Notes: generated from the sequence alone by a model not told the origin. 42,169 nt of DNA from Candidatus Kaiserbacteria bacterium (GCA_016217925.1 JACRFK010000005.1:1-42169); one strand, 5' to 3'; positions 1,048 through 29,774 are shown, counted from the stretch's first letter. Translations and numbers: made by a program.

Positions 1048-1052
1048 TATGA

Positions 1053-1153
1053 AATTTTCAATTCACAATTTGCAATTTTCAATCAATGACCAAATGTTTG
1101 GAAATTTTCAAATTGAAAATTCAATGAAAATTGAGAATTAAAAATTGAAAATT
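1053..1153. repeat. AT-rich inverted heptamer repeat array
   Basis: AATTTTC/AATTCAC/AATTTGC/AATTTTC (1053-1080) and GAAAATT/GAGAATT/AAAAATT/GAAAATT (1126-1153). Confidence 0.8.
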
Positions 1154-1840
1154 ATGGAATCTACAATTTACAACTCGCAAGGTAAAAAGTCCGGGACGGT
1201 AAAACTTCCCGAGAATGTTTTCAATGTTGCCTGGAGTGATGCTCTGATACATCAAGTCGTGACAGCAATGCAGGCCAACGCGCGTCCGACCGTCGCTCAC
1301 GCAAAGACGCGCGGCGAGGTGCGCGGGGGAGGAAAGAAACCGTGGGCGCAAAAAGGTACGGGCCGCGCTCGTCACGGTTCGAGCCGTTCTCCTATATGGA
1401 AAGGCGGCGGCGTCACGCATGGACCGCGTTCGGACAGAGACTATTCGCAAGTGATACCGAAAAAGATGCGCGCCAAGGCGCTTTTCATGGCACTTTCGCG
1501 CAAGCTCAAAGACGGCGAGATACTCTTCGTGGATTCATTCGGCATATCGGAGCCAAAAACCGCAGCCGCACAGAAGGCGCTCGCGATGCTCTCAAAAGTT
1601 TCCGGATTCGGAAAGCTCGGCACCAAGCGCAAGAACGCAGCCCTCATCGCATTTGCCGACCCGACGGCAGCGACACAGAAAAGTTTCCGCAATATCGGCA
1701 ATGTAACAGCCGTTGCGGTGCGGAATCTGAATCCTGTCGCCGTCTTGGGGAACACCTACCTGATTCTCGAAAATCCGGAAGCAGCTATCGCTATCGTTGC
1801 GAGCCGTTCCGGCAAGAAAATAGTTGAGGCACAAAAATAA
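1154..1840 (+). CDS. rplD: 50S ribosomal protein L4
   Basis: KTRGEVRGGGKKPWAQKGTGRARHGS motif; in-frame TTG at 1145 is an alternative start. Confidence 0.98.
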   Translation: MESTIYNSQGKKSGTVKLPENVFNVAWSDALIHQVVTAMQANARPTVAHAKTRGEVRGGGKKPWAQKGTGRARHGSSRSPIWKGGGVTHGPRSDRDYSQVIPKKMRAKALFMALSRKLKDGEILFVDSFGISEPKTAAAQKALAMLSKVSGFGKLGTKRKNAALIAFADPTAATQKSFRNIGNVTAVAVRNLNPVAVLGNTYLILENPEAAIAIVASRSGKKIVEAQK

Positions 1841-1841
1841 T

Positions 1842-2240
1842 ATGGGACTCTTCACAAAAACAAAAAAGTCCGCCGGAGGCGGATCCTCCTCCGGAGGAAA
1901 GAATACAGAAGCAAAGCAGATGGCAGTCGCTACGCCTGCGAGCACATCTCCTTCGATGGGCCGTGATATTTCCACGATTCTGAAACACGCGCGCATCACC
2001 GAGAAGGCGAGCATGCACCAAGCAGGCGGCGTGTACACATTTGATATTGCCCGGGCGGCGACGAAGCGAGATGTGATACAGGCCGTGCGTGCTCTCTATG
2101 CGGTGACGCCACGTACCGTGCGAATCGTTACAGTTCCGACAAAAGTACGCCGCAACGCGCGCACGGGAAAGCTCGGCATGACCGGGGGTGGCAAGAAAGC
2201 GTACGTGTACCTTAAAAAGGGTGAGACGATAACCTTCTAA
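1842..2240 (+). CDS. rplW: 50S ribosomal protein L23 with N-terminal extension
   Basis: ITEKA, KKAYVYLKKG motifs; position after rplD; TAATATG junction. Confidence 0.95.
   Translation: MGLFTKTKKSAGGGSSSGGKNTEAKQMAVATPASTSPSMGRDISTILKHARITEKASMHQAGGVYTFDIARAATKRDVIQAVRALYAVTPRTVRIVTVPTKVRRNARTGKLGMTGGGKKAYVYLKKGETITF
1869..1898 (+). repeat. 30-nt twin-hairpin coding repeat (SAGGGSSSGG)
   Basis: TCCGCC-GGA-GGCGGA-TCCTCC-TCC-GGAGGA; copies at 9780-9809 and 38005-38034. Confidence 0.8.
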
Positions 2241-2248
2241 ACGTATGA

Positions 2249-2355
2249 ATCCCGTTAGAAATTTACTTATGACATCAATACAGGCACAGGGGTTGTCAGG
2301 CTTACTTTCTACCGCATATGCGGAGCAGGATTATTCAGTAAATTTCTAACGGGAT
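2249..2355. mobile_element. MITE-like element (CCCGTTAGA...TCTAACGGG) at rplB start
   Basis: Perfect 19-bp terminal inverted repeats ATCCCGTTAGAAATTTACT / AGTAAATTTCTAACGGGAT; ATGAA duplicated on both sides. Confidence 0.75.
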
Positions 2356-3196
2356 GAAAACATACAAACCCACATCAAAATCGCAGCGGCAGCACACGAG
2401 CATCGAATACCGCAAGCTGCTCTCCGGTCACAAGCCGACGAAGTCGCTTATGAAAGGCGCTCGTAGCTATGCGGGTCGCAACAGTCATGGTCGCATCACG
2501 GTGCGTCATCAGGGCGGAGGGCACAAAAAGAGCTATCGCCAGGTGGATTTCAAGTTCAATAAGAAAAACATCCCCGCCAAGATTACATCCATTGAATACG
2601 ACCCGTTCCGCTCTGGCTTTATCGGGCTTGCCGTGTACAAAGATGGCGAGAAACGCTATGTCGTCCTTCCGCAAAAGGTGAAAGTCGGCGATTCGTTCGT
2701 CGTTTCCGAGACTGCACCCGTTACGCTCGGCAATCGTTTGCCACTCGGGGCCATGCCGGTCGGTACGTTCGTCTACAATATTGAACTGAAACCGGGAGAA
2801 GGTGGCGTCATCGCACGCTCCGCAGGTAATTATTGCGAGATCGTCGCACAAGATGCCGGCTATACGCACATCAAAATGCCTTCGACCGAAGTGCGCCGCG
2901 TCATCTCGACCGCATGGGCGTCCGTCGGCGAAGTTTCCAACGAAGAGCATCATCTCGTCAATCTCGGCAAGGCAGGCCGCAGCCGCTGGCTGGGCCGCCG
3001 TCCAACCGTCCGCGGTACTGCGATGAACCCGGTAGACCATCCGCACGGAGGAGGTGAAGGCAAACAGGGCCGCGGACTGCGCCGCGCCAAGACCATGTGG
3101 GGCAAACCCTCTGGCAAGGGTCAGAAAACGCGCCGCCCGAAGAAATACAGCAACGTTTTCATTGTTAGTCGACGTAAAGTTGGAAAACGTAAGTAG
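2354..3196 (+). CDS. rplB: 50S ribosomal protein L2
   Basis: GRNSHGRITVRHQGGG, IEYDP, RGTAMNPVDHPHGGGEG motifs. Confidence 0.99.
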   Translation: MKTYKPTSKSQRQHTSIEYRKLLSGHKPTKSLMKGARSYAGRNSHGRITVRHQGGGHKKSYRQVDFKFNKKNIPAKITSIEYDPFRSGFIGLAVYKDGEKRYVVLPQKVKVGDSFVVSETAPVTLGNRLPLGAMPVGTFVYNIELKPGEGGVIARSAGNYCEIVAQDAGYTHIKMPSTEVRRVISTAWASVGEVSNEEHHLVNLGKAGRSRWLGRRPTVRGTAMNPVDHPHGGGEGKQGRGLRRAKTMWGKPSGKGQKTRRPKKYSNVFIVSRRKVGKRK

Positions 3197-3205
3197 CAAA
3201 GCCTG

Positions 3206-3237
3206 CCTCGTTAGAACGCGAAGCGTTTCTAATGGGG
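3206..3237. repeat. miniature degenerate CCCGTTAGA-family hairpin
   Basis: CCTCGTTAGA-ACGC-GAA-GCGT-T-TCTAATGGGG; flanked by duplicated rplB 3' end. Confidence 0.6.
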
Positions 3238-3251
3238 TTGGGAAAAGGAAG

Positions 3252-3285
3252 TAGCAAACCGCGGCCCTTAGGCCGCGGTTTGCTA
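3252..3285. terminator. hairpin, probable intrinsic terminator after rplB
   Basis: 15-bp perfect stem TAGCAAACCGCGGCC/GGCCGCGGTTTGCTA. Confidence 0.6.
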
Positions 3286-3295
3286 TGATGTCGGT

Positions 3296-3652
3296 ATGGA
3301 GATTCTCATCGTTCGTGAGCCGGTTCCGGAAGAAACACTGGACGCTCTTGCCGAGGCTTGGCACGGTACGCTGGTGAAGGGCGCCGCGGATATTGAGCGC
3401 GATATTGTGGCCTTGGGTGGTGACTGGCACATGGATGCCAACAACGTTCTTATTGCCGACGGCTCGCAGCAAGAAAATGTATGGGGTTTCAATATCTACC
3501 CGAAAGAGCGTAGCGGCTCCGCTCTTGAATATATTTCCCTCATCAACATCCGCCCGGCGCAAGGCAACAAAGCGATGGAGCTCGCGGACGAGACATTGCG
3601 GGAGAAAATCAAGGAGATAGTTTCGAAATTGGTGCCCCACCTCAATCTATGA
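3296..3652 (+). CDS. DUF5674-like protein
   Basis: DIERDIVALGGDWHMD, GSQQENVWGFNIYP, SLINIRPAQGN match the recognisable DUF5674 pattern. Confidence 0.75.
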   Translation: MEILIVREPVPEETLDALAEAWHGTLVKGAADIERDIVALGGDWHMDANNVLIADGSQQENVWGFNIYPKERSGSALEYISLINIRPAQGNKAMELADETLREKIKEIVSKLVPHLNL

Positions 3653-3918
3653 ACGATGCAAAGTTTTACTTCGCGAATCTCGGTGCTGATGTTACGCGGT
3701 GCGTTTCCGCGCTCCAATCGGGCAATCTCGCTCGGTACGAAGATTCACTCGCACGAGCACGAAAGACGCTCTCACGCCTGCGCGGTGCAAATCGACCGGA
3801 AGCATATGAGGAAGGTTTACTTCTTTTGTCCGGTTTGGAATATGCGCGCCAGAGTAACACGCTTCAATCTTTTGGAATAAACGTAAGCGCATTGAGCGCA
3901 ACGTTCTCGCCTCTATGA
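3649..3918 (+). CDS. small helical hypothetical protein
   Basis: 89-aa ORF with ATGA overlaps to both neighbours. Confidence 0.7.
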   Translation: MNDAKFYFANLGADVTRCVSALQSGNLARYEDSLARARKTLSRLRGANRPEAYEEGLLLLSGLEYARQSNTLQSFGINVSALSATFSPL

Positions 3919-4466
3919 ACGCACACCTCCGGCTCGCTCGAAAAAGCGACCTTGTTGCATACACCGCTCTTCTCCAGCGGACGTGTGAAGTCGCGTTCCC
4001 GAACCCCAAGATAGGCCTAACCAAAGAATGTTTCCCCAAAGAAGTTTTTGCCACTGCTGACACGCAAGCGTATCTTCTAAAGTCGAATCTAACAATAAGT
4101 TCGAATCAAAAAACGTGGCTTGTGGTCGAGAAAAAGAAGCTTATCGGGGCAATCACCACCGAAAAGAAGGGAAAAGTGAGTGACGTAAGGGGTTTTTATG
4201 TTGCACCAGAAAGACAAGGACAAGGTATCGGAAAGATTGTCTGGGAGCGCGCATCGAAGTTTGCAGACGGTCGGCCGGTTACCCTTGAAATCTACGCGCA
4301 CAATAAGAAATCCATTGCTCTCTATAAGAAGCGGGGATTTGTAGTCGACACGACCAAGAGACAGGCATGGTCACACTGGCCGGAATGGCCGAAAGGTGTA
4401 CGTGCGAGAAAATTGTATATGCGGCGCGGACCACAGCGTCCCGGGAAGGTAGGGAAAAAGAAGTAA
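3915..4466 (+). CDS. GNAT family N-acetyltransferase
   Basis: FYVAPERQGQGIG acetyl-CoA motif A and N..SIALYKKRGF motif B. Confidence 0.9.
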   Translation: MNAHLRLARKSDLVAYTALLQRTCEVAFPNPKIGLTKECFPKEVFATADTQAYLLKSNLTISSNQKTWLVVEKKKLIGAITTEKKGKVSDVRGFYVAPERQGQGIGKIVWERASKFADGRPVTLEIYAHNKKSIALYKKRGFVVDTTKRQAWSHWPEWPKGVRARKLYMRRGPQRPGKVGKKK

Positions 4467-4662
4467 AAATCGGGATTTCCAGAACGGAGCATATCCCCAC
4501 GCCGCGGTTTTGTTGTTGGGAAGGGGTGTAAGATAAAGACATTATCTTTAGAGGTCGCGTCACGTCCCGTTTCAGTCGACAATACGGGACACGATTCTGC
4601 GGAATCGAGTACGCGACATGCGAATTAGCAAATTCGAAACTTGGTAATTTTGACAAAATCAC

Positions 4663-7269
4663 ATGCTTAAAAAAATCACGTTCGCAGGTGTCGGCATCGC
4701 ATTACTCGCTTCTCCTCTTCTCGCCTCGGCCGACATGGTCTCCGACCTCCAAGCCCAGATTCAGGCCCTCATGGCGCAGGTCGCTGCTCTGCAAGGACAG
4801 TTGAACCCCGCACCTGCCACTCCCGTCGGCCCGACCGACGACTACGGGACAACTCAGACCACTCCCGCCTGCCCGAATCTTTCCGTCACCATGCAACGCG
4901 GCGCACGCGATGCCACCACAGGCGGACAGGTCATCGACCTCCAGACGTTCCTCGCCGACTACTTCAATTTGCCTGAAGAAGGACTCGTCACCGGGTACTT
5001 CGGGAAAAACACCGAAGCCGCCGTCATCCGCTTCCAGAATCAGTACAGTCTCCCCGCCTTCGGCATCGTCGGCTCGCTTACGCGGGCGAAGATTGCGGGG
5101 GTGTGTGGGGGAGGGGCGGTGCTACAGCCGGGGCCAGTATGTATCGCCGAGGCACTCCGGACAGCATGTCCCACAGGCCAGCATTATGAATCGGCAGGTC
5201 CCGATACCATCGACGCCAACGGATGCCGTCACGACAATCTGAGGTGCGTTCCAGATTCAACCTCCACCGCGACGTTCTCTGCTGCGCCAATGTCGGGCCA
5301 GGCACCGCTCAACGTCACGTTTACGATTGGCGAAGCCAAGCCGGGCGTCACGTACAATTTCAGTTACGGCGACGGCGCGACGGGATCGGCAACGTGCGTG
5401 CAGGACGGCGGCAAAGGCGATCCGAGATGTGGAGCAGCGTGGACGACTGCACATACCTACGCATCAGCTGGCACGTATACCGCGACACTCTCCAAGCAAG
5501 AGTCGTACTCCTGCCCGCCCGGTGCGTACTGTCCAATGCTATACCCGGCTCCAGTCACGGTCGGCACCGTGACGATTACGGTGACCGGCAACCCGACCCA
5601 AACTCTCGTAATTACCGATGTCCAGTATTCACCGGCGCATCCACACGTCAACGATCTCATAACGACGACAGTTACCATCATGAACAAGAGCTCGAGTGAC
5701 CGCACGACAACATTCCAGGTCAACGTGGGGGGTACAACGGTAGATGTTCCATATTTGGCGGCGGTGACCTCAAGAACGGTCATCGTGCCGAACGCCTTCA
5801 CATTCGCGGACCCTGGCCAGAAGACTCTACACACGCACCTGATAAATCCACTGGGTGGCGGGCTTGGTGGCACCATCGACACATATACGAATACACTCAC
5901 GTTCGATGCGGGTAGCAACAGCAGCGGCGTCACCATTACGGCGCCCAACGGCGGCGAGCAGTGGGAGACTGGCATCACCAATACCGTGACGTGGACGCCC
6001 TACCAGTACAATCCGGACATCAATCCTTCGAGAGACGTAACCGCCTTCTTGGAGACCAAGAACTCGGACGGATCGTTCAACATCTTCGGCAGGGTGGAAG
6101 AAAGCGGCAAGGCATCCATTCACTGGGTGACAGGCCAGCTTTATGCGGCATCACAGAGCAACAACTTTATACCGCAAGGTCCGGGCTATTACATTCGCGT
6201 TGTCAACAATGTGACCGGCGCATGGGATCGCTCTGACGCGCCGTTCACCATCTTGCCGCGATCCGTAGACGTAAAAGTCGACGGGTCTGATGGTCCGCTC
6301 ACTATCGACCCGAGTCAGAAGGTGTGGGTGGAATGGACTTCAACCAACAAAACCTCATGCACTTTGTATGGCGTGATGGATAGTCTGACCTCCACACAGA
6401 CGTACATTGGAAACCTGCCGACGAGCGGCAAGCGCGAAGTGTATGTATGGTTCTATGACCCCTCGTCCGGGACTACCATCTCGGCACAGTGCGTTGACGC
6501 GGCAGGGAATGTCGTCACTGATTGGGTCGTAATAAATCCGACGTCTCAACCAGCCGCCATTCGAATCACAAGTCCCAACGGCGGTGAGCAAATATCAATC
6601 GGGAGCGAGTATGTTGTCCGGACTTCCTACTCCGGTGTCTCGGCGGTCTCGGTGGCGCTCTACAAGAACGATCAATGGATGAAGTGGCTCTACAAGGACG
6701 TGCCGGTCTCAAGTTCGCCGCATGATTGGTACTGGACGCCGTCTACTGAAGAAGCGGCCGTAGCGTCACAGGGTAGCGTCTTCAAAATATATGCTACGGG
6801 GCAAAGGACGGACGGCACCGGATACGTCGACGACAAATCCGACGCGCCGTTCTCGTTTAGCGGAATCACAGTAAGTCCTCCGACGTGTTCCATCTCCGGA
6901 ACCCCGGGGAATGAAGTGGTTTCCGGTACGGGCGGCTACAATCTCAGCTGGGTAACAACCAATGCGTCGACGGCGAATCTGACGGGAGGCGCGATGAACC
7001 TCAACACCGGCGTTCCGGTCACGGGCAATCCGTACGGTCAGCCGACACAGATGTGGGTCTCGCAGCCCGGTACCTACACGCTCACCGTCACGGGCACTTA
7101 CGGGCTCGCACCAGGCGGGGGTCTAGTTACCGGAACCTGCAGCACAACGGTCGGTGCCGGGGTGTTGGGCGGAACTGATTCATCGTCAGGTACGAATGCA
7201 TATCTGGCGAGCGCTCTCAGCGCACTTGAATCTGCTCTCAAGGCGTTGATTTCAAAGCTGGGACAATAA
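4663..7269 (+). CDS. large secreted protein with peptidoglycan-binding, PKD and Ig-like domains
   Basis: Signal peptide, coiled coil, PG_binding_1-like LQTFL..TGYFGKNTEAAVIRFQ..GIVGSLTR, PKD (FSYGDG, HTYASAGTY), two T(A/S)PNGGE domains. Confidence 0.85.
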   Translation: MLKKITFAGVGIALLASPLLASADMVSDLQAQIQALMAQVAALQGQLNPAPATPVGPTDDYGTTQTTPACPNLSVTMQRGARDATTGGQVIDLQTFLADYFNLPEEGLVTGYFGKNTEAAVIRFQNQYSLPAFGIVGSLTRAKIAGVCGGGAVLQPGPVCIAEALRTACPTGQHYESAGPDTIDANGCRHDNLRCVPDSTSTATFSAAPMSGQAPLNVTFTIGEAKPGVTYNFSYGDGATGSATCVQDGGKGDPRCGAAWTTAHTYASAGTYTATLSKQESYSCPPGAYCPMLYPAPVTVGTVTITVTGNPTQTLVITDVQYSPAHPHVNDLITTTVTIMNKSSSDRTTTFQVNVGGTTVDVPYLAAVTSRTVIVPNAFTFADPGQKTLHTHLINPLGGGLGGTIDTYTNTLTFDAGSNSSGVTITAPNGGEQWETGITNTVTWTPYQYNPDINPSRDVTAFLETKNSDGSFNIFGRVEESGKASIHWVTGQLYAASQSNNFIPQGPGYYIRVVNNVTGAWDRSDAPFTILPRSVDVKVDGSDGPLTIDPSQKVWVEWTSTNKTSCTLYGVMDSLTSTQTYIGNLPTSGKREVYVWFYDPSSGTTISAQCVDAAGNVVTDWVVINPTSQPAAIRITSPNGGEQISIGSEYVVRTSYSGVSAVSVALYKNDQWMKWLYKDVPVSSSPHDWYWTPSTEEAAVASQGSVFKIYATGQRTDGTGYVDDKSDAPFSFSGITVSPPTCSISGTPGNEVVSGTGGYNLSWVTTNASTANLTGGAMNLNTGVPVTGNPYGQPTQMWVSQPGTYTLTVTGTYGLAPGGGLVTGTCSTTVGAGVLGGTDSSSGTNAYLASALSALESALKALISKLGQ

Positions 7270-7288
7270 CCAGGGGCTCTCTCTTCAG

Positions 7289-7322
7289 CAACAAAAAGCC
7301 CGCTTGTGCGGGCTTTTTGTTG
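7289..7322. terminator. intrinsic terminator
   Basis: CAACAAAAAGCCCGC-TTGT-GCGGGCTTTTTGTTG. Confidence 0.85.
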
Positions 7323-7348
7323 ACATCCCCCCTCATTTCCTATACATT
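7320..7348 (+). promoter_or_regulatory. sigma70 promoter for rpsS block
   Basis: TTGACA (7320-7325), 17 nt, TACATT (7343-7348). Confidence 0.7.
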
Positions 7349-7383
7349 GTGCGAACGCCCGAGAGGCGTTTTTAATTGAAACC

Positions 7384-7734
7384 ATGACACGCTCACTTAA
7401 GAAAGGTCCGTATGTGGACGTCAAATTGATGAAAAAAGTATCTCTGCGCAAAGCCACGCAGGGGACTATCAAGACGTGGGCACGTTCAAGCCAGATAGCA
7501 CCGGAATTTGTGGGCTACACCTTCGCCGTACACACAGGCAAGAATTTTGATGATGTATTCGTGACGGAAGACATGGTAGGTCACCGGTTGGGCGAATTCG
7601 CGCCGACGACCAAATTCATCAAGCACGGCGGTAAGATGCAGAAGGAGACGGAGATGGCCGCCAAGGCCGCGGAAATCGCTGCGGCAACAGCCGCAAAGGC
7701 GACGGCCTCCACGACGGCCGCCGCAAAGAAATAA
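7384..7734 (+). CDS. rpsS: 30S ribosomal protein S19
   Basis: [21 protein letters not shown]; Ala/Lys-rich tail. Confidence 0.98.
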
Positions 7735-7735
7735 T

Positions 7736-8161: not shown

Positions 8162-8162
8162 T

Positions 8163-8849: not shown

Positions 8850-8852
8850 AAT

Positions 8853-9275: not shown

Positions 9276-9280
9276 CGCAT

Positions 9281-9505
9281 ATGACTGATTTTTCAAAACA
9301 AGAAGTTTCTGAGCTGCAAAAAATCGTCGCGGATAAACGCGAGGCGCTTCGCGCGTTCCGCTTCGGCGGCGCAGGCAGCAGGGCTCGCGACGTGCGCACC
9401 GGCCGTACATTACGCCGGGAAATTGCGCAGATATTGACCGAATTGCGCGCGCGGCAATTGTCCGCACAGAAGACCGCAATTGCGTCTAGGGCCAAGAAAG
9501 CGTAG
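9281..9505 (+). CDS. rpmC: 50S ribosomal protein L29
   Basis: LRAFRF...RREIAQILT; position between rplP and rpsQ. Confidence 0.92.
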   Translation: MTDFSKQEVSELQKIVADKREALRAFRFGGAGSRARDVRTGRTLRREIAQILTELRARQLSAQKTAIASRAKKA

Positions 9506-13666: not shown

Positions 13667-13790
13667 AGAGTATGGATAAAAAACTCATCTACTTCGTTAC
13701 AGGGCCCCAGCACCGCTCTCGCCGTATTTCCAATACGTCTCGAGCGTTGCCTTCCCCGTGCCTCGTATCTGAGCTTTTTATCCACACTCT
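13667..13790. mobile_element. MITE-like element between rplF and rplR
   Basis: 21-bp terminal inverted repeats with 19/21 match (AGAGTATGGATAAAAAACTCA / TGAGCTTTTTATCCACACTCT). Confidence 0.7.
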
Positions 13791-13799
13791 AAAATAAGT

Positions 13800-16597: not shown

Positions 16598-16604
16598 CGG
16601 ATGA

Positions 16605-16720
16605 ATCCCGTTAGAAATAGCGGACTGTCACTCATTTCCTCACACATGGTCGTTTTTATCACTCATAACAAAATAGGGCGTGTACCCAGTATCCGGTCCG
16701 CGTCCTATTTCTAACGGGAT
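16605..16720. mobile_element. MITE-like element (CCCGTTAGA...TCTAACGGG) at cmk start
   Basis: 16-bp TIR ATCCCGTTAGAAATAG / CTATTTCTAACGGGAT; ATGAA duplicated. Confidence 0.75.
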
Positions 16721-17282
16721 GAAAAAAGAGTTGATAACCATCGCAGGTTCGCTCGGATCGGGAAAATCTTCAACCGCGAAAGAAGTTGCGCGCGCTCTCG
16801 GCTATCGGCACTTTTCTTCAGGCGACCTTTTTCGTCAAATAGCGGCGCAGCGCGGAGAATCCGTCGAAGCGACGAATATCTCCGCGGAAGCAAAGCGGGA
16901 TATTGATTACCAAGTCGATGAATTGCTCCAGCAAATGGGGAAGACGGAAAATAAGCTCGTCATCGATTCGCGCATGGCATGGCACTGGATGCCGGGTTCT
17001 TTCAAAGTGTTTCTTAGCGTTGACCTCGATTCGGCTGCGCAGCGTATTTTCCAGGATGTGCTCACAAAAAGTCGTGTGAGCGAACACGCCGAATCGGTAG
17101 AAGATGTGCGGGCGAGCATCGAGCGAAGGTTCGCGAGCGAGCAAAAACGATACTTCTCTCTATACGGCGTGAATCCAACTGATCCGAAAAATTTTGATCT
17201 CGTCATTGATACCAAGGACAACAGCCTAAGCGGGGTCACTGATATCGTTCTGGAAAAATACAAGGAATGGCGTAATAGCTAG
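16719..17282 (+). CDS. cmk: cytidylate kinase (archaeal-like short type)
   Basis: ITIAGSLGSGKSS P-loop, SSGDLFRQ, VIDSR, KRY..LYG, FDLVIDT. Confidence 0.85.
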   Translation: MKKELITIAGSLGSGKSSTAKEVARALGYRHFSSGDLFRQIAAQRGESVEATNISAEAKRDIDYQVDELLQQMGKTENKLVIDSRMAWHWMPGSFKVFLSVDLDSAAQRIFQDVLTKSRVSEHAESVEDVRASIERRFASEQKRYFSLYGVNPTDPKNFDLVIDTKDNSLSGVTDIVLEKYKEWRNS

Positions 17283-21621: not shown

Positions 21622-21673
21622 TTTTGTTGATATCGGAGCGAGAGAATGTGTTTGTGAGGTGTATACTTTCTGC

Positions 21674-24526
21674 ATGCCTCCCACGCTGGAGAAGTTGCGC
21701 GTTGCAACGCCGGAAAAATTCAGATCACCTGAAGAAGAGTTGGCCTATTTGCGCGAGCGGGTGCGCGAGAAGGAGGCCGAGATGGAAACGCCCGACAATC
21801 GTTTCGAAAAAGACCGCATCGCCCGTCGCGAAGTCGCGGCCTACGCAGAGCTCACTCCGACGACCATTCTTCACGAGACGGTCGTTATGGCCGAGCCAGA
21901 AATCCTTAAAAATGTCCTCAAGCTCGAACCGGAAACGCATGACAAGCAGGTGGATGAAATATTGCGCATTGTCCAACAGAACGGTATCCGGAACGCACTC
22001 TCGGTCGCCGCGCGGATGAAGAACCCGCATCTCGAAGACGATATCCATCGTGCCCTGGTGCGCTACATCGCCGAGGGCCTGCCCGATAAAGGCATGGGAG
22101 TGCCCGAGAAGGTCCGGCGTGCTCTCAACATGGTGCTTTTTGAGATACAGCCACAGGCACATGGCGAAGACATGACGCGCAGTCGCGATCAGTACAGGCT
22201 TGAGCAGATGCTCTCGTCCACAGAGCAACTCTACGCGGGACTCACCTCGCTTATTGATTCGCACGAGGGATTCTCGCTCGAGATCGCCGTGCAAGAGGGG
22301 ACAGAAGAAGCACTTTTGTATCTCGGAGTCCCGCGCGCCAAAAAGGTACTTGCTGAGCGTCTCGTCTCATCCGTCTTCCCGAACGCACACATGTCGGAGT
22401 CGCGCGGGGATTACAACATTTTCAATTACGAGGGGCAGCATGCCGCCGCCTATGCGACCCTCGCCGATCATCCCTCCTTACCACTCAAGACCCCAGAGCT
22501 CTTCGATCACGATCCGATGAACGTGCTTCTGGCGGCATTCGCGAAGATCGCGAAGCACGGTGAAGGTGCTGCGCTCCAGATAACGGTCTCGACCGAAGGC
22601 GACCGCTACAATCACCACTACAAAAAAATAATCCGTCAGCTCGAGAAGGGAAAACATTTCCGCAAGGCCATCAAGGTGCCGGAGAGTGAGCTCGGCGAGG
22701 CGGTCTACACGATGGCCAAGAAAATTTTCATGGCAAAAGAATATGAAATGGAAGTCGAGAAACAGTTCCGGCGCTCCAGCGACCAGGTGATGACCGAAGA
22801 GTTGACCAAGAAGATAAAAAGCCGCATCGCGCCCGTCTCCATTCGCCTCGTCACCTCTGCGGCGACGAAAGTGCGCGCGGAAGAACTTCTCGAGAATCTC
22901 GAAACCCCATTCAACCAATACGACGACCCGAAAGGCAATCATCTCATCTTTAAACGCGTCGGGAGTTGGAGCCTCGCGGATTTCATCCGCAGCTTTACGT
23001 ACCGCGAGTTCGACTATTCGATTTCTATCCCGCTTTCCCTCGCCGAGGTCACTTCAATATTCCACTTCACCGCCGAGCGACTCACGACATCGCGCGAGTT
23101 GAAGCGCAGTTTTGCCAAACAGGCACCCGCTCCGGTCGCGACGCCAAGCGACGGTATCATCGTCGGCGTCAACAAGTACGGGGCCGACGAGACCCCCGTC
23201 CGGTTCGGCACCAGTGATCGTCTGCGCCACGCGTATGTCATCGGACAGACCGGTACGGGGAAGACGGGGCTTATCAAGAATATGATCATTCAAGACATCA
23301 AGAACGGAGAAGGAGTGGCTTTCATCGATCCGCACGGCAACGACATCGAAGACGTGCTCGCCTGCATTCCGCCGGAGCGCATGAAGGACGTGATTTACTT
23401 TGACCCCGCATACACCGCACGGCCGATGGGACTCAACATGCTCGAATACGACCGCACGAAGCCCGAGATGAAGACCTTCGTCGTGGACGAAGTGTACGGC
23501 ATCTTCCGCAAGCTCTATGCGGACGTGCCGGAGGCATTCGGTCCGATGTTCGAGCAGTACTACCGCAATGCCGTGCAGCTTGTCGTTGAAGACCCCGATA
23601 CGGGCTCGACGTTCGTGGAGATTCCGCGGGTATTTGCCGATACCGCATTCCGCAATCTCAAGCTCTCGCATTGCAAGAATCCCATCATCGTGCAGTTCTG
23701 GCGAAAAATTGCCGAGCAAGCGCAAGGCGATCCGTCGCTGGAGAACGTCGCGCCGTACATCACGAGCAAATTCGACGTCTTTCTCACCAACGACATCATG
23801 CGCCCTATCGTTAGCCAGGAAAAATCCGCCTTCAATTTCCGCGAAATCATGGACAAGAAAAAAATATTCCTCGCGAATCTTTCCAAAGGCCGCTTGGGTG
23901 ATAGAAATACCTCGCTTCTCGGCCTCATCCTCGTATCCAAATTCTTGCAGGCCGCATTCTCGCGCGTGGATACCCGCGGCGACACGCTTCCTGTCTTTTA
24001 CCTCTACATCGACGAATTCCAAAACTTCGCGACGCCCTCTATCGCGACCATTCTCTCGGAGGCACGTAAATACAAACTTTCACTCACGATTGCTCACCAG
24101 TTCATCGCGCAGCTCGAAGAAGATATCCGCGATGCGGTCATCGGCAACGTGGGCACGAAGGCCTCGTTCCGCATCGGCACACAAGACGCCGAATTCTTGG
24201 AGAAACAATTCACGCCGATTTTCACACAGCAAGACCTCGAAAACCTTCCCAACAGAACCGCAGTGCTTTCATTGCTAGTGAACGGCGTCCCGGCGCGGCC
24301 GTTCACCGTTCAGACGCAAAATCTCCCGACGATGGATTACGGCCCCGTAGATGCTCTCAAGGAGCTTTCGTACAAGACCTACGGCAAGGACAGGCAAGAG
24401 GTAGAAGACGACATCAACCGCAAATTTGATGCCGCCTACGGCCGCAAGCCTGCAATCGAACCAAACCCGTTCGCCCCGCCGGAGGCGGGGCTCGACCTCC
24501 CGAACCCCGCATCGTTGTATCAATAA
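21674..24526 (+). CDS. VirB4/TraG-VirD4-like (HerA/FtsK superfamily) P-loop ATPase
   Basis: RLRHAYVIGQTGTGKT Walker A, FIDPHG, LYIDEFQNF Walker B, LSEARKY. Confidence 0.9.
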   Translation: MPPTLEKLRVATPEKFRSPEEELAYLRERVREKEAEMETPDNRFEKDRIARREVAAYAELTPTTILHETVVMAEPEILKNVLKLEPETHDKQVDEILRIVQQNGIRNALSVAARMKNPHLEDDIHRALVRYIAEGLPDKGMGVPEKVRRALNMVLFEIQPQAHGEDMTRSRDQYRLEQMLSSTEQLYAGLTSLIDSHEGFSLEIAVQEGTEEALLYLGVPRAKKVLAERLVSSVFPNAHMSESRGDYNIFNYEGQHAAAYATLADHPSLPLKTPELFDHDPMNVLLAAFAKIAKHGEGAALQITVSTEGDRYNHHYKKIIRQLEKGKHFRKAIKVPESELGEAVYTMAKKIFMAKEYEMEVEKQFRRSSDQVMTEELTKKIKSRIAPVSIRLVTSAATKVRAEELLENLETPFNQYDDPKGNHLIFKRVGSWSLADFIRSFTYREFDYSISIPLSLAEVTSIFHFTAERLTTSRELKRSFAKQAPAPVATPSDGIIVGVNKYGADETPVRFGTSDRLRHAYVIGQTGTGKTGLIKNMIIQDIKNGEGVAFIDPHGNDIEDVLACIPPERMKDVIYFDPAYTARPMGLNMLEYDRTKPEMKTFVVDEVYGIFRKLYADVPEAFGPMFEQYYRNAVQLVVEDPDTGSTFVEIPRVFADTAFRNLKLSHCKNPIIVQFWRKIAEQAQGDPSLENVAPYITSKFDVFLTNDIMRPIVSQEKSAFNFREIMDKKKIFLANLSKGRLGDRNTSLLGLILVSKFLQAAFSRVDTRGDTLPVFYLYIDEFQNFATPSIATILSEARKYKLSLTIAHQFIAQLEEDIRDAVIGNVGTKASFRIGTQDAEFLEKQFTPIFTQQDLENLPNRTAVLSLLVNGVPARPFTVQTQNLPTMDYGPVDALKELSYKTYGKDRQEVEDDINRKFDAAYGRKPAIEPNPFAPPEAGLDLPNPASLYQ

Positions 24527-24544
24527 CCATGCTATCATCTGGGC

Positions 24545-24781
24545 ATGAATTCATTGAAGAATCTAGTATCAGTCGTAGACGCGATAGTTATTTTATGGTT
24601 CATCTGGCTCTTGATAGACGACCCTAGCGAGGCACTTATTTTAGGTGGTCTAATACTTCTTTTTGGTTTGCACATATATCTTCTTTCTTTTTCAAATAAC
24701 GAGAGCGACTGGTTCGGTCTCTTTCTTAAAAGAAAGGCGCTTGAGGAAAAGAAACGGATAGCAGCTTTGGAGACCAAATAG
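24545..24781 (+). CDS. small membrane protein
   Basis: Two hydrophobic helices and a basic tail; -10 box 6 nt upstream. Confidence 0.6.
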   Translation: MNSLKNLVSVVDAIVILWFIWLLIDDPSEALILGGLILLFGLHIYLLSFSNNESDWFGLFLKRKALEEKKRIAALETK

Positions 24782-24903
24782 ATTGACTCTGCAGAGCCAA
24801 ACCACAACCGCTCAAATCCGGACTCCTATAAAACTCCGGAGGTTTAACCTCCCAACTTCTCAGGCTATAGCGTGGCTTTTCCGCAGATGGTATGATTGTC
24901 CGC

Positions 24904-25155
24904 ATGGCAAAAAAGACCAGTAAGAAAGGCGTGACCACCGAGAAGATTCTCGAAGTCGTACTCGATATGAACGAACGGATGGCAACCAAAGATGATCTTG
25001 AAAAAGTGAAGAACCAACTTAACTTGAGAATAGAGGAAGTTCTTGAGGAGATGGAACCGATACGCAAGGCGGTTGATAAAGATGCCGAAATGGTCGTGAA
25101 CCACGGAAAGCGCATTACTGTTCTCGAGCGGAGGATGGGAGTAGCAACAAAATAA
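24904..25155 (+). CDS. hypothetical coiled-coil protein
   Basis: MATKDDL...RITVLE pattern; TAATATG junction with ndk. Confidence 0.7.
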   Translation: MAKKTSKKGVTTEKILEVVLDMNERMATKDDLEKVKNQLNLRIEEVLEEMEPIRKAVDKDAEMVVNHGKRITVLERRMGVATK

Positions 25156-25156
25156 T

Positions 25157-25759
25157 ATGGAACATCCAAAAGAAGAACGCACCTTTGTCATCGTGAAGCC
25201 CGATGGGGTACAGCGCGGGCTTGTCGGCGAGATAATCAAACGCTATGAACGCACGGGCCTCAAGCTTGTGGGGATGCGTTTCGGCGTTGCCGACGAGAAG
25301 AAATTTTGGGAACACTACAACAAAGACGACGCTTGGTTTCTGCAGAAAGGAACAAAAATCCTCGAGGACAAGAAAAAGAACGGGCTGCCGGCGGACAAAG
25401 AGCCGATGGAATACGGCAAAGACATCATCCGCCAACTCGTGAAATTCATGACCTGCGGGCCCGTCCTCATGATGGTCTGGGAAGGGAATCAGGCGGCCGC
25501 AGTCGTGAAGAAAATTACGGGAGGCACTGAGCCCTCGACGTCGGATGTTGGTACCATCCGCGGCGACCTCACGGTGGATTCGTACAATATCGCAGCGGTG
25601 GATGACCGTGCGGTGCGCAATCTTATCCACTGCTCCGAATCGGCTGATGAAGCGAAGCGCGAGATTGCCATATGGTTTACCGACGCCGAAATGACCGAAT
25701 ACCGCCTTGTCGGCGAGCAGATACTCTATGACGTCAACCTTGACGGTATTTTGGAATAG
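25157..25759 (+). CDS. ndk: nucleoside diphosphate kinase
   Basis: ERTFVIVKPDGVQRGLVGEII, GTIRGD, NLIHCS. Confidence 0.97.
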   Translation: MEHPKEERTFVIVKPDGVQRGLVGEIIKRYERTGLKLVGMRFGVADEKKFWEHYNKDDAWFLQKGTKILEDKKKNGLPADKEPMEYGKDIIRQLVKFMTCGPVLMMVWEGNQAAAVVKKITGGTEPSTSDVGTIRGDLTVDSYNIAAVDDRAVRNLIHCSESADEAKREIAIWFTDAEMTEYRLVGEQILYDVNLDGILE

Positions 25760-25815
25760 TGCGTGAACGTGTTTCTTCACTTGCGCTTTTTACGCTGGTG
25801 GTATACTTATACGTA

Positions 25816-25933
25816 GCGGTTAGGTACGAAAACCTGCTGGTGCGAATAAGGGTAACCCAAATTGCTCTGCGCCTTGGTGTAGACGCTGAGGGCTCCCACC
25901 TGGCTCCAATACCAGGCTCACCGTACTTGCCGC
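25816..25933 (+). ncRNA. ssrS: 6S RNA candidate (compact)
   Basis: Extended -10 TGGTATACT upstream; 5' GCGGTTAGGTACG pairs with 3' CGTACTTGCCGC; central bubble, apical stem, GGCTCCCACCTG motif resembling Firmicutes 6S GGCACCCACCTG; terminator follows. Confidence 0.6.
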
Positions 25934-25940
25934 CCCCCTG

Positions 25941-25962
25941 AACCCCGCCTATGGCGGGGTTT
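25941..25962 (+). terminator. intrinsic terminator after the ncRNA
   Basis: AACCCCGCC-TAT-GGCGGGGTTT. Confidence 0.65.
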
Positions 25963-25981
25963 GGAGTGCTAGAATCCTCCG

Positions 25982-27376
25982 ATGAGCGCACACATCACAT
26001 TTCATGGGGGCGCGGGGACGGTGACCGGAGCAAATTTTCTTTTGGATACTGGTGAGAAGAAAATACTTATCGATTGTGGGATACTCCAGAGAGAACAAGT
26101 TTGCGATACGGCCAACAGCGCGCCGTTTCCCTACGATGTAAAAAAAGTAGATACGCTCATCGTGACACACGCGCATCAAGACCACATCGGGCGTATCCCG
26201 CGCCTTGTCCGGGATGGATTTCGCGGCGCGATACATTCGACCGGTGCGACGAAGGAACTCGCTGCCCTCATGTTTGCGGACGCTCTGCGGGTGATGCAGG
26301 AAGACGCATTGAAACGGGGATGCGAAGTGCTATACGAGGCGCAAGATATCGAACAGGCGCTCTTGCTTTGGCACGCGCATGAATATCACGAGCCGTTTGA
26401 AATCCACGAGGCGTCGCCTTCAAATCCCAAAGGCGACGCCTCCGGAATAACGGTTGAGTTTCTTGACGCGGGACACGTCCTCGGCTCGGCACTCGTGAAG
26501 CTCACACGGCATGGCCGCACCATCGTATGTACGGGCGACATTGGCAATTCTCCCGAGCCTCTCTTAAAGGACACTGAATTTCCCGCGGGCACGGATTATC
26601 TGGTGATGGAGAGTGTGTACGGCGACCGTGTGCACGAGGACCGGGCGGAGCGTCGCGAGAAGCTCCGGCAGTGTGTCGAAGACACGCGTGCACGCAAAGG
26701 AGTCCTGCTCATTCCGTCCTTCTCGCTTGAGCGCACGCAGCTGCTGCTCTTTGAGCTCAATGTGATGATGGAGGAGGGGACGCTCGCGCCAATACCCGTG
26801 TATCTCGACTCGCCACTCGCAATAGAAATTACCGATGTATTCCGCAAATACAGACAGCTGCTCAATCCCGCGGCGCAAGAGCATTTTTCGGAGCACGGCG
26901 ACCCCTTCTCGTTTAGGAGCTTGAAGCTCACCCGCGGGGTCAGTGAATCCCGCGCAATCCACGCCGCACCGAGCCCTAAAATCATCATCGCGGGCGCGGG
27001 GATGTCTCACGGCGGGCGCATTCCCATACACGAAAAATACTATTTGAGCGACAAGCACGCGACCATTCTCTTCGTTGGCTATCAGGTGCCGGGCTCACTC
27101 GGGCGGCGTATAGAAGACGGTGAGAAACGAGTCGAAATAGACGGCGAGCACATCCGCATCTATGCCAAGCGGGAGACGCTCACGGGATATTCGGGGCATG
27201 CCGACCGCGAGCAGTTGCTCACCTTTGTCGAGAAAGCGAGGGAGAGTCTTGAGCGCGTCTTTGTGACAATGGGTGAACCGAGATCATCCCTCTTTCTCGC
27301 GCAGCGCATCCAAGATTTTCTCGGAGTTGATGCAATTGTGCCCGAAGCGACACAATCGTTCGACATTAACTGGTAG
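25982..27376 (+). CDS. beta-CASP metallo-beta-lactamase fold ribonuclease
   Basis: THAHQDHIG, AGHVLGS, CTGDIG, MESVYG, YSGHAD. Confidence 0.95.
   Translation: MSAHITFHGGAGTVTGANFLLDTGEKKILIDCGILQREQVCDTANSAPFPYDVKKVDTLIVTHAHQDHIGRIPRLVRDGFRGAIHSTGATKELAALMFADALRVMQEDALKRGCEVLYEAQDIEQALLLWHAHEYHEPFEIHEASPSNPKGDASGITVEFLDAGHVLGSALVKLTRHGRTIVCTGDIGNSPEPLLKDTEFPAGTDYLVMESVYGDRVHEDRAERREKLRQCVEDTRARKGVLLIPSFSLERTQLLLFELNVMMEEGTLAPIPVYLDSPLAIEITDVFRKYRQLLNPAAQEHFSEHGDPFSFRSLKLTRGVSESRAIHAAPSPKIIIAGAGMSHGGRIPIHEKYYLSDKHATILFVGYQVPGSLGRRIEDGEKRVEIDGEHIRIYAKRETLTGYSGHADREQLLTFVEKARESLERVFVTMGEPRSSLFLAQRIQDFLGVDAIVPEATQSFDINW
26408..26442 (+). repeat. REP-doublet-like palindrome in frame in MBL hydrolase
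   Basis: GAGGCGTCGCCTT-N9-AAGGCGACGCCTC; each arm is itself a small palindrome. Confidence 0.6.
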
Positions 27377-27398
27377 CGGGATGGTATAATCGCTCTCA

Positions 27399-28082
27399 AT
27401 GGCGAAAAGGAATCTACATCCGAATCACACTGCGGTCCCGCTGAATTTCTGCCGGCTGCCCGATGGCTACGGTGTCGTGAAGATCGCCGTCTCGGGCGCG
27501 GCCGAGACGGGTGCGTGCGGGCTCGATGCGTATGAAAAAGCAAAAGAGGTCGGGCGCGAGATAGCAAAACACGGCGGCATCATCACGACGGGCGCCACGA
27601 CCGGATTTCCCATGTACGCCGCGATGGGGGCCAAGGATGAATGCGGTTTTTCTATCGGTTTCTCTCCGGCTTCCAACGAGCGCGAGCATGTAGAAACCTA
27701 CAAATTACCACTCGATTTTATGGATGTCGTCGTCTACACAGGTTTTGGGTATTCGGGCCGCGACCTCCTCTTGGTGCGCTCATCGGACGCCATCATCATC
27801 GGGTGTGGACGCATCGGCACGCTCAACGAATTTTCCGTCGCGTTCGAAGACAGGCGGCCGATCGGGATCCTCGAGGGCTCGTGGGGAACCGATGAACTCC
27901 TTAAACAGATCATCGAGGCGGCACATCGGCCCAATGCGAAGATCGTGTACGACTCCGATCCCAAGGCAATGGTAGAGCGTCTTATCGAAATGGTGACGAA
28001 GGAAAAAGAGAAGACGATGCTCGTCTACAACAATCACGACAGCCGCAGCGCGACAGGGAAGAACGAAGAGGTAATCTTCTAG
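27399..28082 (+). CDS. LOG/Rossmann-fold nucleotide-binding family protein (TIGR00725-like)
   Basis: IAVSG, TGATTG, GRDLLLVRSSD, GRIGTLNE. Confidence 0.85.
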   Translation: MAKRNLHPNHTAVPLNFCRLPDGYGVVKIAVSGAAETGACGLDAYEKAKEVGREIAKHGGIITTGATTGFPMYAAMGAKDECGFSIGFSPASNEREHVETYKLPLDFMDVVVYTGFGYSGRDLLLVRSSDAIIIGCGRIGTLNEFSVAFEDRRPIGILEGSWGTDELLKQIIEAAHRPNAKIVYDSDPKAMVERLIEMVTKEKEKTMLVYNNHDSRSATGKNEEVIF

Positions 28083-28090
28083 GATTTGAG

Positions 28091-28129
28091 CCCCGACGTA
28101 AAGTCGGGGTCCCGACCAAAGCGTCGGGA
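28091..28129. repeat. double-hairpin palindromic repeat between convergent genes
   Basis: CCCCGAC..GTCGGGG then TCCCGAC..GTCGGGA; same family as the rplC insert. Confidence 0.7.
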
Positions 28130-28132
28130 CTG

Positions 28133-28480
28133 CTAGCCCTGTAGTTTTTTCGTCAGTCGCTCGAACGCTTCGGGGTGGTTCATCGCGAGCGCGGCGAGGG
28201 ATTTGCGGTCCAGCGTGATGTTGGCCTTCTTGAGAGCATCAATGAATCGCGAGTACGAAAAGCCGAGCGGGCGAACCGCTGCGTTGATGCGGAGCGTCCA
28301 GAGGTTGCGGTATTCGCGCTTTTTGCTGCGGCGGTGGCGGAACGCGTGCGCGCCCGCGTGATGAATAGCTTCCTTGGCGACGCGCTCTTTCCTGGAACGG
28401 TCAAAGCGGTAGCCCTTGGTCTGCGCCAATACGTTGCGGCGGCGCTTCAGTTTTGTGACTCCTCGTTTTACTCGTACCAT
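28133..28480 (-). CDS. rplT: 50S ribosomal protein L20
   Basis: MVRVKRG, LWTLRINAA, SYSRFI, LDRKSLA. Confidence 0.98.
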   Translation of the reverse strand: MVRVKRGVTKLKRRRNVLAQTKGYRFDRSRKERVAKEAIHHAGAHAFRHRRSKKREYRNLWTLRINAAVRPLGFSYSRFIDALKKANITLDRKSLAALAMNHPEAFERLTKKLQG

Positions 28481-28525
28481 ATCTTAGATTTGGTTAGTGA
28501 GCGAAGCGAGCTTAGCAAATCTTAG

Positions 28526-28631
28526 ACCCGCCCATCCGCCATCTGGTGAATAACGTACTTGAGGTGTTTCTGACATGGTGATTTTCATATTATGTGTTGA
28601 TTATGTTGTTGCAAGCGGCGGATAGGCGGGT
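28526..28631. mobile_element. inverted-repeat-bounded element between rpmI and rplT
   Basis: ACCCGCCCATCCGCC / GGCGGATAGGCGGGT (14/15 match) around an AT-rich core. Confidence 0.55.
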
Positions 28632-28665
28632 TGTGAAAATTATAGTCGCTTAGCTCCTTAATTTT

Positions 28666-28848
28666 CTACAAAAATCGGCTCTTGGCGGTGTTGTCCATTG
28701 CGGGGTGGAAAGCGACGGCTCGGTTGCGGCGCATCTGGTGCGACCTGCCCTCCTTTGCGTTGAAGTGGTTCTGGCCAGGAGCGCGGGCAATGATCTTGCC
28801 GTGCTTGGTCACGCGGAGGCGCTTTGTGTAGGATTTGTTGGTTTTCAT
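28666..28848 (-). CDS. rpmI: 50S ribosomal protein L35
   Basis: MKTNKSYTKRLRVTKHGKI...HFNAK; between infC and rplT. Confidence 0.93.
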   Translation of the reverse strand: MKTNKSYTKRLRVTKHGKIIARAPGQNHFNAKEGRSHQMRRNRAVAFHPAMDNTAKSRFL

Positions 28849-28983
28849 ATAGAAACCGCGCTTTGCGCGGTCGGACCATTATGCCCGAAAAAGGGGAGAT
28901 TGCAAGCTGAAAGCGGCGGGCAGAATTTTGCCGTCTGCGGGACTTTCGCACAAGGTCCTCGTCGTCAAAATCCCGCCCGCCGC

Positions 28984-29604
28984 TTATTCCGCTTGGGGAG
29001 GAGGGGGTTGCTGAAGAACTGCCTTTTCCTGCCTGGGTTGCTTCTGCTGTTGCGGTTTCTTGGACGGGTCGCGCTCAAGGGTGATGGAGAGCCCTTTAGG
29101 GCCCTTTTGGATAGGTTCGGCGACCTTGAAACCCTCCGGAATGACCGCAAGGAATCGTTCGAGGCGCTCTTTGAGGAACTCGAATTCCATGTATTTGTAG
29201 CGTCCCCACAAAAAGAGGTCCACCTTTACGCGGTGGCCTTCTTTGAGCCACTCGGCGGCCTTGCCGGCCTTGATTTGCATGTCGCGCTCCGAGGTGCCGA
29301 TCTTCACCTGCGTTATCTTGGTCTCCGTCACATGCGCTTTGGATTTTATCTCCTTGTCTTTTTTCTTTTGCTCGTATTTGAATTTACCGTAGTCGGTAAT
29401 TTTGCACACTGGCGGCTGCGCGTTGGGTGATACTTCGATGAGGTCGAGTCCGAGCTCAGCCGCCTTTGCGAGTGCCTCGCGGATAGGAAGGACGCCGAAA
29501 TTCTCGGCATTGGGGCCGATGACGCGCACTTCAGGGGCCCTGATGCCCTCATTCATGCGCGCGCGCTCTTTTTCAGCCTGCGATGTGTATTTGGTGAATC
29601 CCAT
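28984..29604 (-). CDS. infC: translation initiation factor IF-3
   Basis: NEGIRAPEVRVI, LDLIEVSPNAQPPVCKITDYGKFKYE, GHRVKV. Confidence 0.97.
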   Translation of the reverse strand: MGFTKYTSQAEKERARMNEGIRAPEVRVIGPNAENFGVLPIREALAKAAELGLDLIEVSPNAQPPVCKITDYGKFKYEQKKKDKEIKSKAHVTETKITQVKIGTSERDMQIKAGKAAEWLKEGHRVKVDLFLWGRYKYMEFEFLKERLERFLAVIPEGFKVAEPIQKGPKGLSITLERDPSKKPQQQKQPRQEKAVLQQPPPPQAE

Positions 29605-29722
29605 CCCGTTAGAGGCAGGAAGCTTGCGCTTCCGCGGCGAATTTTGATGTTGTTACAAATTTCATTTTTTAAATGACGTCACCGTATGGTACCACGACGA
29701 ACTTCCGTAGCCTCTAACGGGA
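29604..29722. mobile_element. MITE-like element (CCCGTTAGA...TCTAACGGG) at infC start
   Basis: 13-bp TIR TCCCGTTAGAGGC / GCCTCTAACGGGA; CCCAT (ATGGG on minus) duplicated at 29600-29604 and 29723-29727. Confidence 0.75.
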
Positions 29723-29774
29723 CCCATTTGGTCCGCGCATTATGGCATTTCCGGCTTGATGTTTCAACCGCGTC

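Follow-up and report, generated by a model that had tools for sequence, protein, structure and literature searches.

Introduction

Mycobacterial interspersed repetitive units (MIRUs) are often found in tandem. In two published accounts, they are described as mobile repeats that sit at start codons and carry an open reading frame (ORF) coupled to the next gene at -4, which likely lessens their impact on the host gene (PMC12548453; PMC3184786). The subject of this study is a 42,169-nt stretch of DNA from a Candidatus Kaiserbacteria bacterium (contig C3:1-42169 of a 0.98 Mb genome in 17 contigs with 54% G+C; hereafter the window), in which six inserts between genes, numbered 1 to 6, each contain a short ORF (two in insert 6), or micro-ORF, that ends just before the next start. 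An earlier note on this DNA had proposed that the micro-ORFs carry ribosomes across the inserts, that inserts may survive only if they preserve termination-reinitiation coupling, and that such a rule was not known to be described. The hand-over principle is, however, already described for MIRUs, where PMC12548453 (citing Supply et al. 1997) has it in print.

Three of the inserts (2, 4 and 6) share the ends CCCGTTAGA...TCTAACGGG, and their family is referred to here by the first of these. Judged from their sequence, they are gene-less miniatures of a ~280-nt mobile element whose only gene encodes a GIY-YIG nuclease of 86-95 residues. The element lands on a start codon, duplicates the four bases TGnn and restores an ATG or GTG with its last base. 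One reading phase of the miniatures, which ends at a TAA beside the host start, is depleted of stop codons. Taken as a whole, the reading in which CCCGTTAGA miniatures sit on start codons and their micro-ORFs hand ribosomes over to the host gene is the one that we favour, with a probability of roughly 0.6.

As the cited accounts describe them, MIRUs and the CCCGTTAGA elements are alike in being small, apparently mobile repeats that occupy start codons inside operons and carry a co-oriented ORF whose stop is coupled to the host start, and the same -4 overlap (ATGA) is present in all 12 of the full-length CCCGTTAGA elements. MIRUs differ, in a comparison made by description only, in being 40-100-bp units, whereas the CCCGTTAGA units are single hairpins with long terminal inverted repeats and a 4-bp duplication. 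The stop of the CCCGTTAGA miniatures lies 4 nt before the start rather than in a -4 overlap, and the family has a protein-coding parent and hosts with ultra-small genomes lacking Shine-Dalgarno enrichment.

Miniature inverted-repeat transposable elements (MITEs) such as Correia/NEMIS and Nezha share with the family, according to PMC3184786, the terminal inverted repeats, the target duplication, the many copies, the short copies without transposase, the empty and filled sites, the stable RNA hairpins, the co-transcription with neighbours and the occasional ORF fusions. The CCCGTTAGA family is set apart from them by its base-exact position on start codons, by the start rebuilt with the last base, by the single stop-depleted phase and by a parent that carries a GIY-YIG nuclease and not a known transposase. 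The Ssn/SRM-NTS system, as described in PMC11893778, likewise combines a small single-domain GIY-YIG nuclease with a hairpin repeat that flanks its gene and is dispersed genome-wide; the nuclease of the genome studied here is, from its sequence alone, also a single-domain GIY-YIG protein in the range of ~90-100 aa (94 residues). Unlike the arrangement in Ssn, the two arms of the CCCGTTAGA element enclose the gene and form with it a single unit that has a target duplication, the sites are start codons and the repeat consensus is another one.

In translationally coupled gene pairs, according to PMC12548453, PMC6728339 and PMC10666635, the stop and the start are a few nt apart or overlapping, with structure at the downstream start. 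The same spacing was found here, as TAA-4 nt-ATG in inserts 2 and 4 and in the second ORF of insert 6, and as ATGA in the full-length elements. The difference is that the upstream ORF comes from a mobile element; its sole role would be ribosome delivery, and the host gene would depend on it. No published description of the CCCGTTAGA family was found in the literature searched; as this leaves out supplements and the majority of subscription journals, the result does not prove that none exists.

Insertion geometry and spread of the CCCGTTAGA elements

The three CCCGTTAGA inserts and their micro-ORFs are arranged in the window as follows.

2250..2354, + strand: insert 2, a gene-less CCCGTTAGA element on the rplB start (fold -37.3 kcal/mol)
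2246-2249 and 2355-2358, + strand: TGAA duplication of insert 2; the last element base, A (2354), restores the ATG
2245..2349, + strand: micro-ORF of insert 2, 34 aa, from the original rplB ATG, 4 nt past the rplW stop, to the right-end TAA, 4 nt before the rebuilt ATG
16606..16719, + strand: insert 4, CCCGTTAGA family, with TGAA duplicated at 16602-16605 and 16720-16723
16601..16714, + strand: 37-aa micro-ORF of insert 4, beginning at the original ATG, 3 nt past the secY stop, and ending at the right-end TAA, 4 nt before the rebuilt ATG
29604..29722, - strand: insert 6, CCCGTTAGA family, on the infC start (fold -49.1 kcal/mol), with the host ATG a few nt past a -10-like box
29726-29723 and 29603-29600, - strand: TGGG duplication on both sides of insert 6
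29609..29727, - strand: relay of two ORFs in insert 6; ORF1 (29727-29662, 21 aa) uses the host ATG as its start, and ORF2 (29665-29609, 18 aa) starts in an ATGA overlap and ends at the right-end TAA, 4 nt before the infC ATG

The flanks of the elements follow the pattern ATGnn[T/C]-CCCGTTAGA...TCTAACGGG-[A/G]TGnn. The micro-ORFs begin 3-4 nt past the upstream stop because the host's own ATG is used, and they end 4 nt before the next start because the TAA sits inside TCTAACGGG. Insertion on a start codon, the TGnn duplication and the conserved right-end TAA thus mean that the start and end positions are not an independent coincidence at each insert. Insert 6 measures 123 nt from ATG to ATG (frame 0), and its host-ATG phase therefore differs from the TAA phase. 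In the RNA fold, base pairing within the hairpin stem includes the first two bases of the rebuilt start.

Six CCCGTTAGA half-sites were found in the window against 0.17 expected, a number reached in none of 100 shuffles. The whole genome contains 102 of the 8-mer half-sites and 43 exact end pairs, 27 of which show the ATGnnn...RTG geometry. Of the features typical of MITEs, those observed are terminal inverted repeats (13-19 nt and 100% identical in the window), the TGnn duplication, a high copy number and, for inserts 2, 4 and 6, empty sites. For the larger counts given below, a set of 219 exact elements from 40 genomes was used, six of them full-length (all open) and 213 short. The set was drawn from the own genome and from the loci of the matches listed, with 74 further matches lying outside it, and the shorter member of nested pairs was kept. 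Identical TGnn on both sides was found in 207 of the 219 elements, and 206 precede an ORF of at least 60 aa or an ORF cut by the end of the locus. The end-pair pattern is present in 22 of 41 related genomes and the start-codon pattern in 49 of 201 genomes of the order (44 of 155 genera), with no occurrence of a reversed-pattern control.

All six inserts are lineage-specific insertions, absent at the orthologous junctions of same-genus genomes. The empty site of insert 2 is seen in one same-genus genome as TTCTAATACT|ATGAAAAC (rplW|rplB), and that of insert 4 in two as TAGCGA|ATGAAAAAG and TAACCA|ATGAAAAAA (secY|kinase). At the site of insert 6, the infC ATG directly follows the -10-like box, with no insert, in five same-genus genomes. 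Among assembled metagenome contigs, the joints at 2264/2342 and 16625/16696 stem from other repeat copies, so that no empty-site allele of this strain was found among them.

Three further observations concern the form and the sites of the family. Five own-genome copies (C1:36590, C1:113513, C1:145233, C2:1489 and C2:7286) lie on TTGAC with TTGA duplicated, sites which could be -35-like promoter boxes that are also rebuilt by the insertion. Bare hairpins of 27-31 nt with the same stem (CCCGTTAGAGGC, a 3-nt loop and the complement) and no interior were found at C1:157663-157689, C1:307687-307713 and similar positions; these may represent the element in its minimal form or the footprints it has left. 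In the ~120-nt copies, a motif in the middle of the otherwise variable interior is conserved, (T)ATG with GGTCGA no more than a few bases after it; in many of these copies its ATG shares the phase of the right-end TAA and could serve as an internal restart site.

The full-length element and its nuclease gene

The longest copy in the own genome (C8:58825-59099) is filled by a 94-residue ORF that matches PF01541 over residues 10-74 (E 2.2e-15); a scan of this protein against NCBIfam gave no match. The start codon of this ORF is the host ATG, itself overlapping the upstream stop, and its stop codon is a TGA overlapping the rebuilt ATG. The ATGA overlap is common to the 12 full-length ORFs, which come from 10 genomes. 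The host ATG is the start in nine of them and an own ATG 22-29 nt further in is the start in the other three. The other 11 ORFs are 59-83% identical to the own-genome copy and are linked to it by this identity, the Pfam result being that of the own-genome nuclease. GIY-YIG-coding forms with the ends of the CCCGTTAGA family were found in nine of the 201 genomes, and an exact full-length copy also occurs in eight of the 49 miniature-bearing genomes, as compared by eye from the rows for each genome. The nuclease may be what moves the element.

Three more small GIY-YIG-like ORFs without element ends, 34-42% identical to the element nuclease, are present at C1:265004-265222, C1:195731-195925 and C6:39167-39361. 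Two of them lie, by eye, just upstream of tRNA-like sequence.

Open frames and stop codons in the miniatures

Spanning ORFs in the CCCGTTAGA family were found to exceed the expectation from shuffled sequence. Among 30 own-genome copies on start codons, 18 have a frame that stays open all the way from the host ATG to the right end, against 7.9-9.7 in shuffles and eight on the reverse strand. Ten of the 18 end at the TAA, three at an overlapping TGA, and five fuse in frame with the host gene. In the first 84 short copies 40 are open against 19.8-21.3 expected, a number that none of 500 shuffles reaches, and the reverse strand is open in 20. Among the 213 short copies, the open ones are concentrated in one length class, frame 1, whose host-ATG frame ends at the TAA and which is open in 66 of 108 copies. 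The commonest lengths, 118, 121, 124 and 127 nt, are mostly open, and lengths of 120, 123 and 126 nt are open in one of 34 copies.

The clearer signal is the scarcity of stop codons in the TAA phase. Counted by phase with the TAA phase first, the interiors contain 218/424/470 stop triplets on the forward strand and 421/428/386 on the reverse strand; for the central part the counts are 155/314/359 and 280/240/242, respectively. The depletion is two-fold, is confined to the TAA phase and extends to each of the three length classes. Read backward from the TAA, the interior is open over a mean fraction of 0.72 of its length, compared with 0.40-0.44 in the other phases and 0.43-0.49 on the reverse strand. 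Taken genome by genome, the TAA phase surpasses all five controls in openness in 35 of 39, with one tie, and its count of central stops is the lowest in 22 of 35. An open frame inherited by the miniatures from the nuclease ORF was considered and rejected, as the open phase differs from the nuclease phase relative to the right end.

Substitutions in 66 gapless pairs are spread over the three codon positions without bias (372/348/381). Since this absence of bias goes together with a stop-poor phase, the frame is kept open and the peptide is free to change. It is highly improbable that the micro-ORFs encode functional small proteins, even though they have open frames that run in the direction of the host gene and begin at a good initiation site. 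Comparison of the translations bears out the earlier remark that the peptides are unrelated apart from the parts encoded by the ends, and a functional peptide was rejected on the same codon-position counts, in which a third-position excess is missing.

A number of observations weigh against the favoured reading. Many copies persist without a continuous bridge, as the frame opened by the host ATG is uninterrupted in only 83 of the 213 short copies; the two length classes other than frame 1 contribute little to these (10 of 58 in frame 0 and 7 of 47 in frame 2, the latter reaching an overlapping stop only when the duplication begins with TGA). Copies internal to operons are weakly more open than others (39 of 81 vs 41 of 123, p 0.04), and this contrast falls to p 0.33 without the own genome. 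After clustering at 70% identity, singletons are open in 12 of 36 cases and the mean per cluster is 0.37, against ~0.25 in shuffles of the whole set; as the copies are related, the nominal p-values overstate the case. An ATG that could act as a relay lies within 10 nt of the first stop in 13 of 48 frame-0 and 5 of 40 frame-2 copies, counts for which no null was computed; six of these are ATGA overlaps as in insert 6. In the own-genome copies off canonical starts, the TAA phase is fully open on one strand in 11 of 13, copies which are short and in which the other phases average 0.64. The ORF may thus have been handed down within the element lineage instead of being selected at each site.

These observations bear on the possibility that the open frames are purely a by-product of insertion geometry and of ancestry from an open master, with the host gene translated independently of the micro-ORFs. 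Insertion accounts fully for the geometry, over half of the copies are closed, the excess shrinks on clustering to the 12 of 36 singletons just given, and closed copies are often a single stop or a single length change away from open relatives. We nevertheless consider this explanation unlikely. The interiors are near saturation, with a median pairwise identity of 0.50 vs 0.48 in shuffled sequence, yet a two-fold depletion of stops persists in one phase only, and it extends through the variable centre, all three length classes and most genomes with no equivalent in the other phases or on the reverse strand.

The idea of selection for termination-reinitiation consequently stands in part. One family in which it can be tested has a stop-depleted TAA phase 4 nt before the host start, but the rule is not a strict one of survival. 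A stop lies inside the host-ATG frame of 130 of the 213 short copies, and bridging is no condition of survival because so few are open; the expected contrast between operon-internal and other copies is weak, as seen above. The premise that the genome is poor in Shine-Dalgarno signals agrees with our counts, in which 118 of 1216 crude starts have such a signal and so do 450 of 5000 random positions, which amounts to no enrichment.

Constraint of a kind unrelated to translation would also be able to remove stops, if the hairpins were recognition or cleavage sites for a nuclease, as in Ssn, or structural RNA or DNA with a periodic constraint. Such a role would fit the conserved ends, subterminal repeats and central motif, the existence of 27-31-nt hairpins with the same stem, and the small GIY-YIG nucleases with cognate hairpin repeats documented in Chenal et al. 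2025 (PMC11893778). It is nonetheless quite improbable, given that the depletion is strand-specific, is locked to the TAA beside the host start and holds in the variable centre, and that no Rfam family matches any of the six inserts at the gathering threshold. Under the hand-over reading, we infer that the phase-specific depletion of stops is kept by selection for the passage of ribosomes to the host gene.

Proposed mechanism and its implications

In the mechanism that we propose for the hand-over of ribosomes, the left TGnn copy would retain the host ATG together with its start context, which may be coupling to the stop upstream or a 5' end almost without a leader, and the last element base with the right TGnn copy would restore an ATG or GTG. 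Ribosomes starting at the old ATG would enter the left arm of the hairpin and melt the stem. In the full-length element they would translate the nuclease and terminate at the TGA overlapping the rebuilt start, and in most miniatures these ribosomes, or others restarting internally, would terminate at the right-end TAA, 4 nt before the rebuilt start. Translation of the host gene would then follow from termination-reinitiation, from unmasking of its start, or from both, which are standard models for coupled genes (PMC12548453).

A further and more tentative proposal is that the stop-free phase is an evolved hand-over adaptor for the starts of essential genes in genomes whose translation starts do without Shine-Dalgarno sequences, and that the ~280-nt parent is a self-mobilising transposon in which GIY-YIG acts as a new kind of transposase; we regard this as possible but somewhat doubtful. 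The adaptor reading names essential targets, namely ribosomal proteins, the neighbour of SecY and IF-3, and the parent would borrow from the host gene the codons at which its own translation starts and stops.

If the hand-over reading holds, selfish DNA can enter compact essential operons without polar damage by occupying the start codon and passing the ribosome on. The 213 copies from 40 genomes would be comparative evidence for ORFs constrained only to stay open, and they bear on how translation starts in ultra-small bacteria without Shine-Dalgarno signals, by coupling or at near-leaderless starts. The elements also carry a warning for annotation, as they yield false N-terminal extensions and spurious small genes. 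In addition, they point to a compact natural 'bicistronic adaptor' and to a possible new transposition enzyme.

Inserts 1, 3 and 5

The three other inserts belong to repeat families other than CCCGTTAGA and are arranged as follows.

1053..1153, + strand: insert 1, second family, an AT-rich element with inverted repeats that sits on the rplD start and is flanked by ATG on either side
1049-1141, + strand: micro-ORF of insert 1, 30 aa, ending 12 nt before the ATG of rplD
13667..13790, + strand: insert 3, a hairpin element of a third family between rplF and rplR
13672-13797, + strand: micro-ORF of insert 3, 41 aa, ending 2 nt before the rplR ATG
28481..28665, - strand: insert 5 region, a 185-nt rpmI-rplT spacer with no hairpin
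28588-28484, - strand: micro-ORF of insert 5, 34 aa, ending 3 nt before the rplT start

Translation recovered all six micro-ORFs where the earlier note had placed them. The distances that it had given from their stops to the next start are likewise correct (12 nt to ATG or 3 nt to TTG for insert 1, and 4, 2, 4, 3 and 4 nt for inserts 2 to 6), as is its statement that the first four begin 1-7 nt past the upstream stop (1, 4, 7 and 3 nt). Its description of all six as palindromic is true of five. Inverted repeats of 35 nt (80%), 19 nt (100%), 26 nt (85%), 16 nt (100%) and 13 nt (100%) were found in inserts 1, 2, 3, 4 and 6, with z-scores of the RNA fold against shuffles of -2.2, -5.5, -5.1, -3.7 and -4.75, respectively; insert 5 has no inverted repeat and a z-score of -1.0. 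The micro-ORFs of inserts 1, 3 and 5 are compatible with the hand-over of ribosomes, with copies too few for statistics: seven in the own genome for the family of insert 1, five for that of insert 3 and one for insert 5, which is unique.

Two of the seven short copies of the insert 1 family lie on start codons, judged from the printed flanks. The AT-rich inverted repeats of insert 1 also bound a 456-nt unit elsewhere in the own genome (C2:190542-190997), whose sole gene encodes a four-helix-bundle protein that matches TIGR02436 (E 9.5e-20). This unit is a second mini-cassette family with miniature derivatives. The rplC|rplD spacer is 8-12 nt long in five same-genus genomes without insert 1. 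Insert 3 has an empty site in one same-genus genome, TAAAAAGT|ATG (rplF|rplR), and dispersed copies of its family are found in relatives as well. Both ends of insert 5 are dispersed repeats in two same-genus genomes, and the rpmI|rplT spacer is only 25 and 16 nt long in two same-genus genomes.

The rplC|rplD junction was also observed to carry differing, unrelated inserts in 6 of 11 same-genus genomes (loci L033-L035, L037, L039 and L041), one of which is a degenerate copy of the CCCGTTAGA type. This junction looks like a hot spot for small elements.

Flanking genes and other features of the window

By Pfam, the gene pairs around inserts 1 to 5 are L3|L4, L23|L2, L6|L18, SecY|cytidylate-kinase-like and L35|L20, and the downstream neighbour of insert 6 is IF-3. 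The best metagenome match for the DNA of the window is from groundwater. A -10-like box is found a few nt before the ATG at many host genes that carry CCCGTTAGA elements. In five same-genus genomes (loci L205-L209) the infC ATG lies ~10-11 nt (19 in one genome) past such a box, TATAGT/TATAAT; the position of the box before infC (compare window 29727-29760) suggests that the IF-3 mRNA may be nearly leaderless.

Other features of the window are listed below.

33007-33394, - strand: tmRNA (111.9 bits)
41307-41378, + strand: tRNA-Ile with anticodon TAT
4663-7269: an 868-aa ORF amid the ribosomal-protein genes
1866-1909: a ~35-nt GC-rich palindromic repeat in the N-terminal part of rplW, in frame and coding for a Gly/Ser-rich stretch of L23

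Many further copies of the repeat within rplW, with 91-100% identity, are present in the own genome and in same-genus genomes, and it resembles repeats that invade coding sequence.

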